Assembly: GCA_049719955.1 (NCBI GenBank)
Contig: JBNARC010000008.1
Span: 26,131-90,130 of the forward strand
Reading direction: 5' to 3'
DNA length: 64,000 bases
Source: Moorellales bacterium
GTDB lineage: Bacteria; Bacillota; DSM-521; Neomoorellales; SLTJ01
Position numbers and translations under genes: made by a program. Shown here one piece after another: positions 17,597-24,416 of this stretch. The first letter of the stretch is position 1. Each line of letters opens with the position of its first letter. Under the pieces are notes generated by a model. It did not search any database and had not been told where the DNA came from. It was given only the letters and a program-made list of their open reading frames with translations.

Positions 17597-18922
17597 ATGC
17601 TTTCCTTGCAGGCCAGCGAGCTGGAAGGTAAGACGGTTGCCGAATTATATCGTATGGCCCGGGAACTGAACATTCCGGGGTATTACCGGTTACGAAAGAA
17701 GGAGTTGATTGAAGAAATCCTTAAGCTCAAATCCGAGAAGAACGAAGAGGTCAAAGCGGAGAAGAACGAGGTCGCCAAGGTCACGGCGGAAAGAAACCAC
17801 CTCTACGCTCAAGGGGTGCTGGAGATACTGCCGGAAGGGTACGGTTTTCTCCGACCGGTAAACTACCTTCCCAGCGAAGGCGACATTTACGTTTCCCCTT
17901 CCCAAATCCGGAGATTGGATCTGCGCACCGGCGATCTGGTAGGGGGCCAGATTCGGCCTCCCAAGGAAGGAGAGCGCTTCAGCGCCCTCTTGCGGGTGGA
18001 AAGCATCAACGGGGTGCCGCCGGAACAGGTAACCCGCCGGCTCTCCTTCGATGCCCTTACCCCCATCTTCCCTACCGAGCGCCTCACCCTGGAAACCCCG
18101 GACGCGGATATTTCCTGCCGCATGATCGACCTGATCGCTCCGCTGGGCAAGGGGCAGCGCGGTTTGATTGTGGCTCCGCCTAAGGCCGGCAAGACCGTTC
18201 TCCTGAAGAAGATCGCCAACGCCATTGCCCACAATTATCCCGAGGTAATCTTGATGATACTGCTCATCGACGAGCGCCCGGAAGAGGTTACCGATATGGA
18301 GCGCTCGGTGCGGGCGGAAGTGATCAGCTCCACCTTTGATCAGCCTCCGGAGAACCACGTGCGGGTGGCGGATATGGTGCTGGAGCGGGCCAAGCGCCTG
18401 GTGGAGCAGAAGAAAGACGTAGTTATCCTTATGGACAGCATTACCCGCCTGGCCCGCGCCCACAACCTAGTAGTACCTCCTAGCGGCCGCACCCTTTCCG
18501 GAGGTGTGGATCCGGCGGCCCTGCACAAACCTAAACGCTTTTTCGGAGCCGCCCGCAATGTGGAGGAAGGCGGTAGCCTCACCATAGTGGCCACCGCCCT
18601 GGTAGAGACCGGCAGCCGCATGGATGACGTAATCTTTGAAGAGTTTAAGGGTACCGGCAATATGGAACTGATTCTCGATCGTCGGTTGGCCGAGCGACGC
18701 ATTTTCCCGGCCATAGACGTAAAGCGTTCCGGTACCCGGCGGGAGGAGGCGTTACTCAGCCCGGAGGAGCTAGAGCTGATGTGGCACTTCCGGCGCGAAA
18801 CCAATGCCCTCAGTACGGTGGAAGTGACCGAGATGCTCATCGATGCCCTGCGTAAGACCCGGTCGAACCGGGACCTACTGCGGGCTTTACCCCACTTCTT
18901 CCCGGAAACCGCTCGTCTATAG
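17597..18922 (+). CDS. rho: transcription termination factor Rho
   Basis: Rho N-terminal domain ([13 protein letters not shown]), cold-shock-like RNA-binding domain, Walker [25 protein letters not shown]. Confidence 0.95.
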
Positions 18923-18942
18923 CTTTGCCGGCTTTCTTCGGT

Positions 18943-18971
18943 TTGCCTTCCGGCCAGGCCTGTGCTATAAT
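18943..18971 (+). promoter_or_regulatory. sigma-A-type promoter upstream of rpmE
   Basis: TTGCCT (18943..18948), 17-nt spacer ending in TGc, then TATAAT (18966..18971). Confidence 0.5.
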
Positions 18972-19020
18972 AGCTCGGCGAAAGCCCAGAATTCGTTACC
19001 GAAGTCAGGGGTGAACAGCC

Positions 19021-19224
19021 ATGAAGAAGGGGATTCATCCGCCTTATCAGAAGGCGCGGATAATCTGCGCCTGCGGCAACGTGATCGAGACCCGTTCCAC
19101 CAAGAAGGAAATGCACGTGGAAGTCTGTTCGCGCTGCCATCCCTTCTACACCGGGTCCCGTCAACAGGTGATCGTAGAGCGGGGCGGGCAGGTGGAGAAG
19201 TTCCGAAAGAAGTATGGGGTTTGA
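19021..19224 (+). CDS. rpmE: 50S ribosomal protein L31 (zinc-binding type)
   Basis: MKKGIHP..., with Cys pairs CACGN and [10 protein letters not shown]. Confidence 0.95.
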
Positions 19225-20245
19225 AAGCTTGGCCAAGCCCATTGGGCGGAGCGCGAGCTCTGCTTTTTTCTTTTCTCTGCCGCGGCCCCAGGCCTTCGCC
19301 TACGGCGGGCAGGCGGTCATTGAGGGAGTGATGATGCGCGGCCCCCGGAGTTTTGCCGTGGCCGTGCGCCGGGGAGACGGGAGCATACTGGTTGACCGTC
19401 AGCTTCTTCCGGCCTGGGCGGCGCGTCGGGGGCCGGGAGGCTGGCCGCTGGTGCGCGGGGTGCTGGCTCTGGTGGAGGCGCTGGTGCTGGGCATCCGGGT
19501 GCTAAGCTTTTCCGCCGGCGTGGCGGCCGAGGGAGAGGGCGAGGAGCTGGGCAGGGGAGAAATGGCCTTGGCCCTCCTGCTGGCGGTGGGCCTGGCGGTG
19601 GGCCTGTTTGTGGTCCTACCCGCCCTGGCGGGGCACTGGAGTGCCGTCCGGCTCGGCCCTTGGGGCCAGAACCTCCTCGAGGGCGGCCTGCGTCTGGCGG
19701 TTTTCCTGGGTTATCTGGCGGCCATTGCCCGGTTGCAGGAAGTGCGCACCCTCTTTGCTTATCACGGGGCGGAGCACAAAGTGATCCACTGCTGGGAGGC
19801 AGGCGCCGGGCTGGATCCCGTGGCGGCCCAGGCCTTTCCCCGTTTGCACCCCCGGTGCGGCACCAGCTTCGTCCTTTTGGTAATGCTGGTGGCAGTCCTG
19901 CTTTATTCGCTTATTCCCGTATCCGGCCTCGCCGTCAGAATGGCGGTGCGGGTGGGGTTGCTTCCCCTGGTGGCCGGTTTGAGCTACGAGGTCTTGCGTT
20001 GGTCGGCGCGGTTACAGGACCGCTGGCCGGTAAGAATGCTCATCGCTCCGGGTTTGGGGCTACAGAAGATGACCACCCGCGAGCCCGATCGGGACCAACT
20101 GGAGGTAGCCGCAGCCGCCCTGGAGGCGGTACTGGCGGATGAGAATTCGGACGGAACTAAGGAGGTTTGCGACGGCCGTCCTTCTCGGCCCGGCTGTACG
20201 GAGCCAGGGGCGGCAGGAGAATCCGGCAGGGCTTCCGGGAGCTGA
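19214..20245 (+). CDS. DUF1385 family membrane protein
   Basis: [33 protein letters not shown]. The start is uncertain because a weak rpmE terminator-like hairpin and T-run lie at about 19246..19270. About 33 aa of non-conserved-looking C-terminal tail. Confidence 0.8.
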
Positions 20246-20251
20246 TAAGGG

Positions 20252-21940
20252 ATGCCGAAGAAGCAGGAGAAGGACAAATTTAGCTTTACCGTATGCGGGG
20301 AATTTTTTCCGGAAGTCTATCCCACCTCCCGGTCTTCCAGGTGGAGCCGCGGCGAAGAGGATCCCCTGGCGACGGAGATGCGTCTTTTCTCTGCCTGCCT
20401 GCGGTGGGCCTTTAATCGGCTTCTGGAAGGCGGTTCCCGCGATGAGATCAAGAAGCTCGGCCAGGAGCTTTTCGGGCTGAACTCCCGGTATGCAGACGAC
20501 GCGCGGCTTAAAGCAAAGGCCCTGCTGGACTCCCAGAAGGAGCTTCTGGAGCTGGAGATTGAGGAAACGGAGAAGAAACTGGGCCGGGCAAGGCAAAAAC
20601 TTGGCCTGGCCGCTAAGAAACTGGCCAGGGCCGAAAAGAAAGGTGTGGCTCCTGCCGAGCTGGAGAAGCTACGCCTTGCGGTCAGAGGCCGCCAGATGCG
20701 TGTGGCTTCTCTGGAGAGAAAGCTTTTCGAGCTAAAAGTTTACCGCCGGGACGGCGCCATACCCAAGGTGGTCTTCGGTGGCAAGAGGTTGTGGAAGAAA
20801 GTCTGCAAAGGCCGGGCCACACGGGAGGAGTGGCGGGCGGCCCGCCAAAACCGCCTCTACTGCCGGGGGGACGAGACCAAGGGCGGCAACGCGAACATAA
20901 AGGTCACTTACCGGGAGGGGGAGTTCTACCTGGCGGTAACCGTTTCCCACCTCTCGGAGAAGGTGGGCGAAGACAAACTCAACCGCCCCAGGATGAGCCG
21001 CGCCCCCAGGGTGGAGGGCAGGTTGTGGCTGCCAGAGAAACACCGGGACTTGGTGCGGGTTTGGCTGGCCATGAAGCTGCCCTACACGGTAGAGCTGGTC
21101 CGCACCCTGGAGGGCCGCTATATAGGGCATCTGACCTTTGATTTGGGCACCATACGGGAACCCGACTTTGCCAAAGGTTGTTTAGCCCTGGACACCAACC
21201 CTGACGGGGTGGGCTTATGTAACGTGAACGTTTCGGGCCAGCCGGAGCCGTGGCCGGAAGGCTTCAGTGTCCCCTACCCCGGCAGCCTGGGCAAGTACCA
21301 AGGAGAGTTTCAGGTCATCACCTATCCTAACGGTTTTCTGTATATCCGAGTGCCCGATCTCGCCTACACTTCCGGCTTCCGGAGGGACTACCTGATAGGC
21401 GTCTTAGCCCAAGTGGTGGTAGGCATAGCGTTCTCTTTGGGCAAGCCAATAGCCCTAGAGGACCTGGACTTCGGCAAAGACCGGCTGGACACCGACAAGA
21501 AATTCAACCGCGTGGCCGCAAACTTTCCCTTTGCCAGGATGGTGGAAGCCGTGTGCCGGAGGGCGGCCAGAGAAGGGGTGCCTTCCAAGCTCGTGGCTGC
21601 CCGGCACACCTCCACCATCGGGTACTGGAAGTACGCGAAGCGTTACGCCGTACCGGTGCACTGCGCGGCGGCGCTGGCTGTGGGCCGCCGGGCGATGGGC
21701 AGGAAAGAGCGGGTAACCAAAGAACTTAAACAACTGGTAGCCCGTATCAAGCAAGACCTGACCCAAAAGGTCAATCCTGATACGCCGGGGGAAGGAGAAG
21801 GGATGACCCGTGGGGTCAGGGCCGGCTTGAGGCGGCTGGAGGAAAGGCTCTTGCGGCATAACGGACTTACCCCGTGGCAGCAGGAGGCTTATACTTCCGT
21901 CTGGCGCGACTTAAAGCTTTTGGCCCTGTCCTTGCGGTGA
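20252..21940 (+). CDS. TnpB-related protein (IS200/IS605 OrfB-like RuvC-fold protein), non-canonical motif III, no zinc finger
   Basis: 562 aa. RuvC-I LALDTNPDG (Asp314). RuvC-II IALEDLDF (Glu403). TS-motif RHTSTIGYWKYAKRYAVPVHCAAALAVGRR, where His470 sits where TnpB has Asp and no CxxC pairs occur. Long helical insert at aa 84-165. Confidence 0.8.
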   Translation: MPKKQEKDKFSFTVCGEFFPEVYPTSRSSRWSRGEEDPLATEMRLFSACLRWAFNRLLEGGSRDEIKKLGQELFGLNSRYADDARLKAKALLDSQKELLELEIEETEKKLGRARQKLGLAAKKLARAEKKGVAPAELEKLRLAVRGRQMRVASLERKLFELKVYRRDGAIPKVVFGGKRLWKKVCKGRATREEWRAARQNRLYCRGDETKGGNANIKVTYREGEFYLAVTVSHLSEKVGEDKLNRPRMSRAPRVEGRLWLPEKHRDLVRVWLAMKLPYTVELVRTLEGRYIGHLTFDLGTIREPDFAKGCLALDTNPDGVGLCNVNVSGQPEPWPEGFSVPYPGSLGKYQGEFQVITYPNGFLYIRVPDLAYTSGFRRDYLIGVLAQVVVGIAFSLGKPIALEDLDFGKDRLDTDKKFNRVAANFPFARMVEAVCRRAAREGVPSKLVAARHTSTIGYWKYAKRYAVPVHCAAALAVGRRAMGRKERVTKELKQLVARIKQDLTQKVNPDTPGEGEGMTRGVRAGLRRLEERLLRHNGLTPWQQEAYTSVWRDLKLLALSLR

Positions 21941-22215
21941 CCCCGCTTAGCCGGTGTCGGGAAAAACCGGCAGGCGTCCTGACAGGACGCGGGAGGCGGG
22001 ACTAATTTCCCGCCGGAAGGCCAACACCGCCTGGCGGAAGCCTAAAGGTTCCCCGCTGTTAAGCGGCCCGTGCTGGTTGTGCCCTTCCGGCGAAGGCCTC
22101 CCGTCCGGGTGGGACTCCCGGGCCGAGGTCCCCTGTCGCCCTGCCCCCCGGGGGGCAAATCAAGTATCGGGAAGGAGGCGAAAGCCTGGTCTGGGGGCCG
22201 GCTTGGCTGGAGATA
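21941..22215 (+). ncRNA. candidate omega-RNA/reRNA-like structured transcript 3' of the tnpB-related gene
   Basis: At least 8 consecutive short GC-rich hairpins, for example 21974..21990, 21995..22014, 22053..22066, 22083..22096, 22105..22121, 22142..22157 and 22176..22187 (GAAA loop). The only ORF here is Arg-rich with no RBS. Confidence 0.3.
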
Positions 22216-22251
22216 AAAAACAGTCAAGTTTCTTGAACCAGGTGAGCAGGA

Positions 22252-23322
22252 GTGTGGGCTAAGCTGGAGGAGCTGGAATCCCGCTACGAAAACTTGAGCC
22301 GAGAACTGGCCGATCCGGCGATTATTGCCGATCCTGAGGCCTATCAGAAGCGGGCCCGGGCTCACGCCGAACTGGAGGAGATTGTGAGCACCTACCGCCG
22401 GTACAAGCGCGTGCGGCAGGAGATGGCCGAGGCCAGGCAGATCTTGGAGGAAGACGGGGATCGGGAACTGCGGGAACTGGCGGCCGCCGAGCTGGTGCGG
22501 TTGGAAGCCGAGGAAGAGGAACTAGAGCGCCGGCTCCGCCTGCTGCTCCTGCCCCGGGATCCTAACGACGAGAAGAACGTGATTATGGAGATCCGCGCCG
22601 GCGCCGGCGGGGAGGAGGCGGCGCTTTTCGCGGCCGATCTTTTCCGCATGTACAGCCGCTACGCCGAGGAAAAGGGCTGGCGGGTGGAACTGATAGACGT
22701 GCATCCCACGGAATTGGGCGGGTTTAAGGAAATCGTGTTCTCGGTGGACGGGCGGGGTGCCTACAGCCGCTTGAAGTTCGAGAGCGGGGTTCATCGGGTG
22801 CAGCGCATCCCGGTTACCGAGTCCGGCGGCCGCATTCATACCTCTACCGCCACGGTGGCGGTGCTTCCGGAGGCGGAGGAAGTGGAGGTGGAGATCGACC
22901 CCGAGGATCTGCGCATCGATACCTTCTGCTCCAGCGGACCAGGAGGGCAGTCGGTGAACACCACCAAGTCCGCGGTGCGCATTACCCACCTGCCCACCGG
23001 GCTGGTGGTCACCTGTCAGGACGAGAAATCACAGCACAAGAACAAGGAAAAGGCCCTGCGGGTGCTGCGGGCCCGGCTATTGGCCCTGGAGCAGGAGAAG
23101 CAGCAGAATGCGTTGGCCAGCGCCCGGCGTTCTCAGGTGGGAACCGGGGATCGCAGCGAGCGCATCCGCACCTATAACTTCCCTCAGGGTCGGGTTACCG
23201 ACCACCGCATCGGCCTTACCCTGCACAAATTGGACCAGGTGCTGGACGGAGATCTGGACGACATAATCGAGGTTCTGGTTACCACCGACCAGGCCGAGCG
23301 GCTGAAGGAAAGCGCCCTGTGA
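22252..23322 (+). CDS. prfA: peptide chain release factor 1
   Basis: N-terminus [15 protein letters not shown] tripeptide (RIPVTES), GGQ motif [12 protein letters not shown]. Confidence 0.95.
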
Positions 23323-24416
23323 TCGTGGCCGAGGTGTTGCGGCAAACCGCCTGCCGTCTGAAGGCCCGCGCCGGTGCGGCTGCCCGGCTGGAGGCAGAAC
23401 TGCTGCTGGCCGAGGTACGGGGCCAAAGCCGGGCCCGGCTGCTGGCCGAGCTGCGTCGGCCGGTGTCCTCCGGCGAGCTGGCCGTTCTGGAGTATTTGGT
23501 AACCAGGCGTCTGGAAGGCGAGCCGGTGGCCTATCTACTGGGGCGCCGCGAGTTTATGTCCCTGGAATTTCGGGTAGGGCCGGGAGTGTTGGTACCCCGT
23601 CCGGAAACGGAAACCCTGGTGGAAAAGGCGCTGGAGATTCTGAGGCGGGGCCGGCGGCGCCGCCCGGTGGTGGCCGACGTGGGCACGGGCTGCGGTAACC
23701 TCGCCCTCAGTGTGGCCTACTATTTCCCCCGGGCTCGCATAGTCGCTACTGAGTTGTCTTCCGCCGCCCTGAGGTGGGCGCGCCTTAATGCCCGCCGGCT
23801 GGGGCTTTCCCACCGGGTGAAATTCTACCGGGGAGACTTGCTGCGCCCGCTGCTGTCCCGGCGCGGGGCTTTCCGGGACCGTGTGCCTCGGTACCGTTAC
23901 CGAGGTTATGGCACTTTCCCGCGGCGCTCAGGCTTGGGAGGTTCGCGGGCTCGCTCGCTTGTTTCGCCGCCCGCCGGCCGGAGCCTTCGGTCCAAGGCCG
24001 GCCCCGTTCTCCTTTGCCCCGGCGGGCCTCCGGTGCCGGCGGAACCCGACGCCGGCGGCTCTCGTGGTCGTCGAGGGCCGCGGGTGGACTTCGTACTGGC
24101 CAATCTGCCCTACATTCCCACCGGCCATCTAAAGTCGCTGCCCCCCGAGGTCCAACGCGAGCCTCGCCTGGCCCTGGACGGAGGTTCGGACGGTCTGGAC
24201 CTTTACCGGCGCCTGTTAAGGCAACTAGGCGGCGTTTTGCGTCCCGGAGGCTACCTGGTCTTGGAGATGAGTCCGGAGCAAGAAGATCCGCTGCGCCGGC
24301 TGCTGGTCGCCGCCGGGTTTCGACGCGTGGGGGTAATACGGGACGGCGCGGGTAGACCGCGGGGATTTTGCGGTCGGTTTTTCCCGGTAAAGCAGGGAAC
24401 CAGGGTAGGTTTGTAG
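23319..24416 (+). CDS. prmC: release-factor glutamine N5-methyltransferase PrmC/HemK, carrying an in-frame insertion of about 76 aa
   Basis: GTGA overlap with prfA. SAM motif [13 protein letters not shown]. Catalytic motif reads NLPY (24102..24113) instead of NPPY. The Arg/Gly/Pro-rich segment at aa 180-255 has no counterpart in PrmC proteins as I remember them. Confidence 0.85.

Follow-up and report, generated by a model that had tools for sequence, protein, structure and literature searches.

A probable left-end-truncated, transposase-less IS607-family element with a His-for-Asp TnpB, inserted in front of prfA in a Moorellales bacterium

A 64,000-nucleotide stretch of a Moorellales bacterium genome (assembly GCA_049719955.1, contig JBNARC010000008.1, positions 26,131 to 90,130 of the forward strand; hereafter the window) carries, between the DUF1385 gene and the release factor 1 gene prfA, an open reading frame (ORF) of 562 residues that resembles the transposon-encoded nuclease TnpB. 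This gene is very probably the tnpB of an ordinary mobile element of the insertion sequence (IS) family IS607, a copy that has been truncated at its left end and has lost its transposase; we hold this of the whole explanation taken together. The evidence comes from sibling copies that still carry an IS607-type transposase, from a remnant of that transposase in the window, and from the sequence of the site in relatives that lack the insertion.

Family membership and loss of the transposase

The gene belongs to a family of 230 homologues (57-100% identity), which is multi-copy in several genomes. In the closest full-length homologues, from Moorellaceae AZ2 (L001) and Carboxydothermus hydrogenoformans Z-2901 (L002; CP000141, about 322-332 kb), a gene encoding a MerR-type helix-turn-helix (HTH) and a Resolvase domain ends inside the start of tnpB. 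A serine-recombinase TnpA with an N-terminal MerR-type HTH, as is typical of IS607, is therefore found in sibling copies, and the TnpA of L001 scores 197.5 bits on the NF033518 equivalog "IS607 family transposase", for which the cutoff is 110. Because its copies occur next to tnpA, the family is an ordinary IS, and it is the window copy itself that has lost the transposase gene.

The first-pass annotation, which was made from the sequence alone, had seen no tnpA nearby. This is correct in that no intact gene is present, but the annotation overlooked the last ~34 tnpA codons, immediately upstream of tnpB and overlapping its start, as well as the sharp bounds of the insertion in which the gene sits; residues 182-215 of the L001 TnpA match window positions 20179-20280 at 94% identity (tblastn). 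In a survey of 40 genome loci from the scan together with copies fetched earlier, tnpA was full-length in 11, frameshifted or partial in many more, and reduced to a 3' stub in several, including the window. With tnpA lost and the left end almost completely missing, the window copy is unable to move alone, and it is probably not mobilisable in trans either.

Searches with tblastn and blastn found no further copies of the element in the 64-kb window, and the exact 562-residue protein has no database record. A partial protein with 100% identity (P0001) represents the same insertion upstream of prfA in a sibling metagenome-assembled genome (MAG), GCA_049721505.1, and not a second locus. The contig of the sibling MAG breaks within the element, which hints at repeats. 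The element is common in thermophilic Firmicutes.

Several observations were made on the sibling copies in their own right. At least nine of them (L033, L044, L018, L030, L004, L015, L014, L020 and L005) have differing internal deletions in tnpA but keep their left end, tnpB and 3' RNA region; in this family the transposase has thus been lost recurrently and independently while tnpB was retained. In Moorellaceae AZ2 (L001:311-3064), the IS607-type element adjoins an IS605-type element, which consists of a Y1 TnpA and a 467-residue zinc-finger TnpB, and another TnpB fragment, so that this locus forms a nest of OMEGA-type transposons. The tnpB stop is lost in a MAG with the label Dehalococcoidia (L010:2501-4474; P0024, 655 residues), where the ORF spans nearly the whole 3' RNA region, to 6 nt from the right end. 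Copies at 69-81% protein identity are also present in MAGs of other phyla, namely L005, L041 (Caldatribacterium), L019 (Armatimonadota) and L010 (Dehalococcoidia), suggesting horizontal spread among thermophiles or binning contamination.

Element ends and the empty site

The insert spans 2,077 bp, at 20166-22242 or, with the shared GG counted on the opposite side, at 20164-22240. The left end was defined by an alignment of 15 full left ends and by comparing the upstream segment with a full element in blastn: the 15 full copies start GG^TTTGCAGCAGCTTC... (the caret marks the junction) in unrelated flanks. In the window, the left junction reads AAGGAGG^TTTGCGACGGCC at 20159-20177 and is followed directly by the tnpA stub. 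On the right side, ~300 nt past the tnpB stop are conserved in every copy and the conservation halts abruptly at ...TTTTTTGAACCAGG (27 copies with unrelated flanks).

From the two junctions, the sequence before insertion was predicted to be ...AAGGAGG^TGAGCAGGAGTGTGGGCTAAG.... Empty sites were sought through the DUF1385 orthologues P0271-P0273 (89%, 80% and 71% identity), in whose contigs DUF1385 overlaps prfA by 11-17 nt and no insert is present. The empty sites of L045 and L046 read CCAAGGAGGTGAGCAGGAGTGTGGGCTAAGCTGGAGGAGCTGGAATCCCGCTACGA, which is base for base the predicted excision product and splits into CCAAGGAGG^TGAGCAGGAGTG, that is, AAGGAGG^TGAGCAGGAGTG; L047 has GGAGGTGAGCAGGAGTGTGGGC at the same junction, with the same architecture. 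As the orthologous junction is empty in L045-L047, the insertion between DUF1385 and prfA that had been claimed from the window alone is confirmed. Metagenome contigs were also scanned for exact matches to a pattern from the 5' end of prfA, with zero hits.

Compared with the empty site, the window junctions AAGGA[GG]TTTGC and GAACCA[GG]TGAGC both carry GG, and all true left junctions in the family end in GG. There is no target-site duplication, the empty site being the left flank plus the right flank with only the GG shared. The GG at both junctions together with the missing duplication constitutes the signature of IS607 serine-recombinase transposition. No terminal inverted repeats were detected (5 of 20 terminal positions identical, and an inverted local score reached by 21 of 300 shuffles), and the short motif TTGACTG/ACTGTA occurs repeatedly in the left end and is also present in the right one. 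According to previous studies, IS607 ends carry a short recurring motif, and IS607 elements use a GG core, cause no target duplication, share one sequence as TnpA target and as transposon-associated motif (TAM) of TnpB, and have a near-TAM at the right end (PMC6188088; bioRxiv 10.1101/2023.11.20.567912).

The element therefore resembles the IS607 of H. pylori and the CboIStron of Clostridium botulinum (PMC6188088; bioRxiv 10.1101/2023.11.20.567912) in its overlapping tnpA(Ser)-tnpB gene order, in the GG crossover core at both junctions with neither target duplication nor terminal inverted repeats, and in a structured 3' RNA that ends at the right end. Unlike those elements, in which TnpB has ~400 residues, an Asp-Glu-Asp (D-E-D) active site and a zinc finger, the protein here has 562 residues, an Asp-Glu-His (D-E-H) set and no zinc finger, and the target is RGGAGG, Shine-Dalgarno-like and co-oriented with the downstream gene. 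Moreover, the element has no group I intron, and the window copy also lacks tnpA and the left end.

A different left junction was seen in L026 (2395-2510), where AAGGAGG^ATTTGCTGGCTGTAGTGAC is internal to tnpA (codons D-L-L-A-V-V-T) and resembles the true end GG^TTTGCAGCAGC. TnpA may at times use such an internal pseudo-left-end, which would give rise to mini-elements with tnpB only. The junction in the window, GG^TTTGCGACGGCC, could have arisen in this way or through an internal deletion that came later.

The TnpB-like protein

Judged by profile comparison and predicted fold, the 562-residue protein is a remote relative of TnpB. A local copy of Pfam-A, which predates the PF27229 model, gave no relevant match, OrfB_IS605 included; homologues carry PF27229 (SSO2105_N) in precomputed annotation. 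Among the NCBIfam models, guided_TnpB (NF040570) matched with E = 1e-15 and 57.9 bits, below its cutoff of 100, "TnpB-related" (TIGR01766) matched residues 378-454 with 26.7 bits against a cutoff of 32, and TIGR01765 also matched below threshold, so that the protein reaches none of the curated thresholds of NF040570, TIGR01766 and OrfB_IS605. A phmmer search of PDB sequences with the single protein returned only coiled-coil noise, and a family profile was needed. The profile of 64 diverse members matched PDB chains of Cas12f1 and TnpB with E = 2.5e-10 to 5e-5, aligning GiDtNp with GVDLGV (RuvC-I Asp) and iEdL with IENL/MEDL (RuvC-II Glu), and it halted at YTS, right before the zinc ribbon of those chains (CPLC...CVAC in the canonical protein). 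HHalign against the canonical zinc-finger TnpB of L001 (92% probability) likewise covered RuvC-I and RuvC-II and stopped at YTS, without bridging the missing ribbon.

The structure was modelled by AlphaFold2 with 27 homologues (mean predicted local distance difference test 80.2, predicted template modelling score 0.71). The overall fold resembles solved TnpB and Cas12 structures (Foldseek probability 0.94-1.00); the top PDB matches were only Cas12f, CasX, Cas12m, Cas12c and Cas12i, with ISDra2 TnpB (8exa), CasLambda and Fanzor2 at lower ranks. A fold unrelated to RuvC was rejected, and the relationship to TnpB proposed by the first-pass annotation is backed by the sub-threshold NCBIfam matches, Foldseek and the profile match at E = 2.5e-10. 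The protein shares with ISDra2 TnpB (PDB 8EXA) and Cas12f (7C7L, 8J12, 9I8Y) the fold, the WED/RuvC core, RuvC-I, RuvC-II and YTS, whereas it is just 8-13% identical to them, has His instead of Asp, lacks the zinc ribbon, and carries in addition a ~90-residue coiled-coil hairpin and a ~80-residue C-terminal helical extension. In the model the long hairpin is formed by helices 78-130 and 134-167 and the extension, also helical, by residues 490-561; they match the helical insert and the C-terminal tail noticed earlier from the sequence.

The ORF is present as described, and the coordinates given earlier for D314, E403 and the segment R451-R480 (nt 21602-21691) all agree with the sequence and its translation. 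The absence of CxxC and the His at RuvC-III are borne out as well: the eight Cys of the protein are scattered and form zero CxxC pairs, so no C4 zinc ribbon lies between RuvC-II and RuvC-III, and the position of the canonical RuvC-III Asp is taken by His470. In a side-by-side comparison, the canonical TnpB of L001 reads ...DTSRR-CPLC-(24 residues)-CVAC-KKLRDVSADFLATENI and the window protein ...HTSTIGYWKYAKRYAVPVHCAAALAVGRR; the spacing from the TS motif to H470 is 15 residues, against ~40 in canonical TnpB, and in the model a single short helix of 13 residues (453-465) fills the zinc-ribbon gap. None of the 27 homologues aligned (57-83% identity) deviates at D314, E403 or H470. An exhaustive profile search found 2,323 clusters (50% identity) at E <= 0.001, and among 116 near-full-length distant representatives from it, the D column is kept in 107, the E column in 105 and the H column in 99 (D in 6), with CxxC in almost none. 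By motif position and the published description of the clade discussed below, His470 thus appears to occupy the place of the catalytic Asp, and the invariant D-E-H set suggests an active nuclease with His as a metal ligand.

Five major TnpB clades have been defined, of which RIIIr-4 is characterized by the RuvC-III Asp-to-His change and loss of the C4 zinc finger and was inferred, from conservation, to be still catalytically active (Altae-Tran et al. 2023, PNAS; PMC10691335). The window protein has both defining features and is on that basis probably a member of RIIIr-4. The gene is therefore not the uncharacterised new TnpB branch suggested by the first-pass annotation, since the branch has already been published. 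Similarities extend to the retained RuvC-I Asp and RuvC-II Glu and to the clade itself, which is large, mostly mobile and occurs with serine-recombinase TnpA; the sub-branch highlighted there, associated with ribbon-helix-helix (RHH)/MazE proteins, is not that of the window protein. No biochemistry, TAM or target preference is given for RIIIr-4 in PMC10691335, the clade appears only as a tree label in the other literature searched, and a search for literature on SSO2105 or on the biochemistry of the His clade found nothing relevant.

Structured 3' RNA region

Between the tnpB stop and the right end lies a conserved non-coding region of 302 nt. Its predicted fold is multi-helix and comprises 80 pairs, with compensatory double changes at 18. 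Over the alignment, 95.8% of cells are paired, against 36-57% when the partners are slid by 1-3 columns, and the covariation score is 0.214, against 0.05-0.08; neither value was reached in 500 shuffles. The first bases past the stop pair with the last bases before the right end in a closing helix, and a terminal hairpin (22202-22209 with 22221-22228) is followed by a T-run. A conserved structured 3' RNA with a sharp boundary between scaffold and flank is a feature of TnpB/Cas12 systems, and from its position, size, structure and sharp boundary the region is a candidate omega-RNA scaffold; by analogy with IS605/IS607 TnpB systems, we infer that the guide would continue into the flank. A scan of 18500-23500 against Rfam found no relevant family.

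The last helix, CTTGGCTG...CAGTCAAG (22202-22234), and the T-run that follows it at 8 nt from the right end resemble an intrinsic terminator. A scan with a terminator consensus did not flag the right-end hairpin, because its loop exceeds the length allowed in the scan. If it were an efficient terminator, it would curb both guide synthesis and read-through into prfA.

Target preference for Shine-Dalgarno sequences

RGGAGG^ is the sequence at some 30 independent true left junctions, the sole exception being AGAAGG. Of 28 right junctions, 20 are followed after 6-12 nt by the start of an ORF of at least 80 codons on the same strand, against a background of 16.6% at 2,580 random GG positions. The RGGAGG junctions and the same-strand starts at 6-12 nt together indicate that Shine-Dalgarno sequences are the insertion sites of this lineage, which lands in the orientation of the gene downstream; the terminal ...CCAGG of the element rebuilds part of the site. 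Shine-Dalgarno targeting or a GGAGG TAM was not reported in the searchable literature, which is itself incomplete, so novelty is unproven. In the dissected IS607 system, the TnpA target TGGG is also the TnpB TAM, and the right end carries TCGG, a near-TAM that avoids self-cleavage (bioRxiv 10.1101/2023.11.20.567912). The pair GGAGG and CCAGG here is likewise an imperfect mirror, as TGGG and TCGG are in CboIStron.

A bolder proposal would be that this is an IS607 lineage specialised to home into Shine-Dalgarno sequences, with ~GGAGG serving as both TnpA target and TnpB TAM, and that the stranded copy is an RNA-guided regulator in the making; we regard this combination as quite unlikely. If it were true, the element would ride on host operon transcription and rebuild a ribosome-binding site from its terminal AGG, and the translation-initiation region of the downstream gene would come to lie in the guide position of the omega-RNA. 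A D-E-H TnpB that bound or processed the read-through transcript, or that bound the junction DNA, could then modulate prfA translation.

Effects on neighbouring genes

In the window, the last five native codons of DUF1385 (SRSVG*, from a native end ...KEVSRSVG*) are replaced by a 25-residue tail encoded by element DNA (20166-20245), and the native 11-nt overlap of DUF1385 and prfA is lost. The prfA GTG (22252) now lies 9 nt beyond the right end of the element (22242), and in place of AAGGAGGTGA its Shine-Dalgarno sequence is now ccAGGTGA, shortened to AGGTGA at an unaltered distance of 6 nt from the GTG. The earlier suggestion that the gene could affect prfA-prmC expression is supported to this extent, as comparison with the empty site reveals an altered translation-initiation region. 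The tnpB ATG is 6 nt past the new DUF1385 stop; the gene thus lies inside the operon and is probably expressed, and this copy is probably transcribed within the rpmE-DUF1385-prfA-prmC operon. Transcription of prfA would in turn depend on read-through across a 2-kb element that ends in a hairpin and a T-run. The coordinates of all features are collected in Table 1.

Table 1. Features of the element and of the adjoining genes, in window positions.
Feature	Position	Strand	Basis
DUF1385 (YqhQ)	19214..20245	+	Comparison with L045-L047
Left flank and target motif AAGGAGG (original prfA Shine-Dalgarno core, candidate TAM)	20159..20165	+	Empty sites L045/L046; ~30 left junctions
Left crossover core GG	20164-20165	+	Junction against empty site
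Left junction of insert	20166..20178	+	TTTGC, shared with the start (5 nt) of left ends in the family, GG^TTTGCAGCAGC; remainder of the left end and most of tnpA absent
tnpA 3' stub (codons ~182-215 and stop)	20179..20283	+	tblastn with L001 TnpA; DNA alignment; overlaps tnpB start as in intact copies
tnpB-like gene, 562 residues	20252..21940	+	Precomputed Pfam PF27229 SSO2105_N; RuvC-I/II motifs; fold; RIIIr-4 features
RuvC-I D314 codon	21191-21193	+	Sequence and translation
RuvC-II E403 codon	21458-21460	+	Sequence and translation
H470 codon, RuvC-III position	21659-21661	+	Sequence and translation
Candidate omega-RNA scaffold, 302 nt	21941..22242	+	Conserved structured non-coding region; abrupt end in 27 copies; covariation
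Right crossover core GG	22241-22242	+	Right end ...TTTCTTGAACCAGG
Right flank, would-be omega-RNA guide position	22243..22262	+	Analogy with IS605/IS607 TnpB systems; flank identical to empty site L045/L046
prfA (release factor 1)	22252..23322	+	TIGR00019, 561.7 bits; junction comparison

The right flank covers the rest of the prfA ribosome-binding region and the GTG start. Further downstream, PrmC (23319-24416) has 365 residues against the usual ~285, with an Arg/Gly/Pro-rich low-complexity insert of ~70 residues (~190-265); the L047 orthologue is also long (352 residues).

Proposed mechanism and alternative explanations

The comparison with the empty site shows that the element entered AAGGAGG^TGAGC, the prfA Shine-Dalgarno sequence, by exchange across the GG dinucleotide. 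Of tnpA only the last ~34 codons are left and the left end is almost entirely gone, while tnpB and the structured 3' region are intact. By analogy with characterized systems, the family would move by TnpA-catalysed excision and integration across GG, and the TnpB-RNA complex would recognise ~GGAGG as TAM together with the flank and cut vacated sites, whose repair would restore the element. The mismatch between the right-end CCAGG and the target GGAGG would spare the occupied site. In this scheme D-E-H would act as a working metal-binding triad. The window copy is unable to excise, and TnpB therefore has no obvious local target.

This last point leads to the alternative that the copy is an inert relic, a decaying IS fossil in which tnpB is intact because the loss of tnpA and the left end is recent, and protein and RNA are idle. 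We consider this unlikely, though it deserves serious weight. The deleted tnpA and left end are what it predicts, no excision means no empty site for a homing nuclease, and many siblings have independent tnpA deletions and frameshifts. However, the ORF is full length with every family-invariant residue kept, the same insertion is found in a second MAG, and the gene, with its ATG just past the DUF1385 stop, is probably expressed from the operon. Targets or TnpA could still come from further copies elsewhere in the genome, and the contig break in the sibling MAG hints at such repeats.

Alternatively, the D-E-H protein might be RNA-guided without being a DNA-cutting homing nuclease, for instance by assisting TnpA insertion at GGAGG or by acting on RNA. 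The non-canonical active site, the missing zinc ribbon and the extra coiled-coil hairpin and C-terminal domain of unknown role might point that way, as might the RGGAGG preference, which is stronger than the GG or (G)GG reported for IS607 TnpA alone. Yet in the dissected IS607 system TnpA itself picks TGGG and the TnpB TAM merely matches it. Histidine is, besides, an accepted metal ligand in RNase H-fold nucleases, for example in the DEDH set of Argonaute. Retained activity of the clade was inferred from conservation by Altae-Tran et al. (PMC10691335), and a non-cutting role seems improbable on balance.

The first-pass annotation had also raised the possibility of a domesticated DNA binder, that is, a nuclease-impaired TnpB of the TldR or Cas12k kind that has become an RNA-guided regulator of prfA-prmC. 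Such exaptations are known for TldR; the copy is stranded and cannot transpose, and the predicted guide position covers the prfA ribosome-binding region and start codon. Like TldR and other nuclease-dead exapted TnpBs, the protein is TnpB-derived and has its guide position beside host gene expression signals. What sets TldR-type proteins apart is that their catalytic residues are lost, that they no longer move and that their association with the target gene is conserved. None of this applies here: the catalytic D and E are kept and the H is conserved across the superfamily. Furthermore, the family is multi-copy, mobile and paired with an IS607 tnpA. The same element precedes ~28 unrelated genes and is therefore not tied to prfA. 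Nor is synteny conserved, since relatives with 89% and 80% identity in DUF1385 have an empty site in front of prfA. A domesticated regulator was rejected on mobility, insertion polymorphism and conserved catalytic residues, and we think it highly improbable.

Finally, a misaligned canonical TnpB with a conventional Asp and zinc finger can be dismissed with near certainty, as CxxC is absent from the protein and near-absent from the family, the stretch from TS to H470 is far too short for a canonical protein, three independent profile alignments end at YTS, and no support for it was found.

Significance

Two parts of this picture are already known, namely the His-for-Asp, zinc-finger-less TnpB clade and the normal IS607-type transposon. 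So far, no RIIIr-4 TnpB seems to have been biochemically tested. The family described here now has mapped ends, a 302-nt covarying guide-RNA scaffold candidate, a predicted TAM (RGGAGG) and natural pairs of target and empty site, which makes a D-E-H RNA-guided nuclease directly testable. Co-oriented insertion into Shine-Dalgarno sequences, with the ribosome-binding site partly rebuilt, amounts to a low-cost insertion strategy of which we found no description. For the Moorellales bacterium, the insertion rewires expression of the essential gene prfA and places a chimeric tail on DUF1385.

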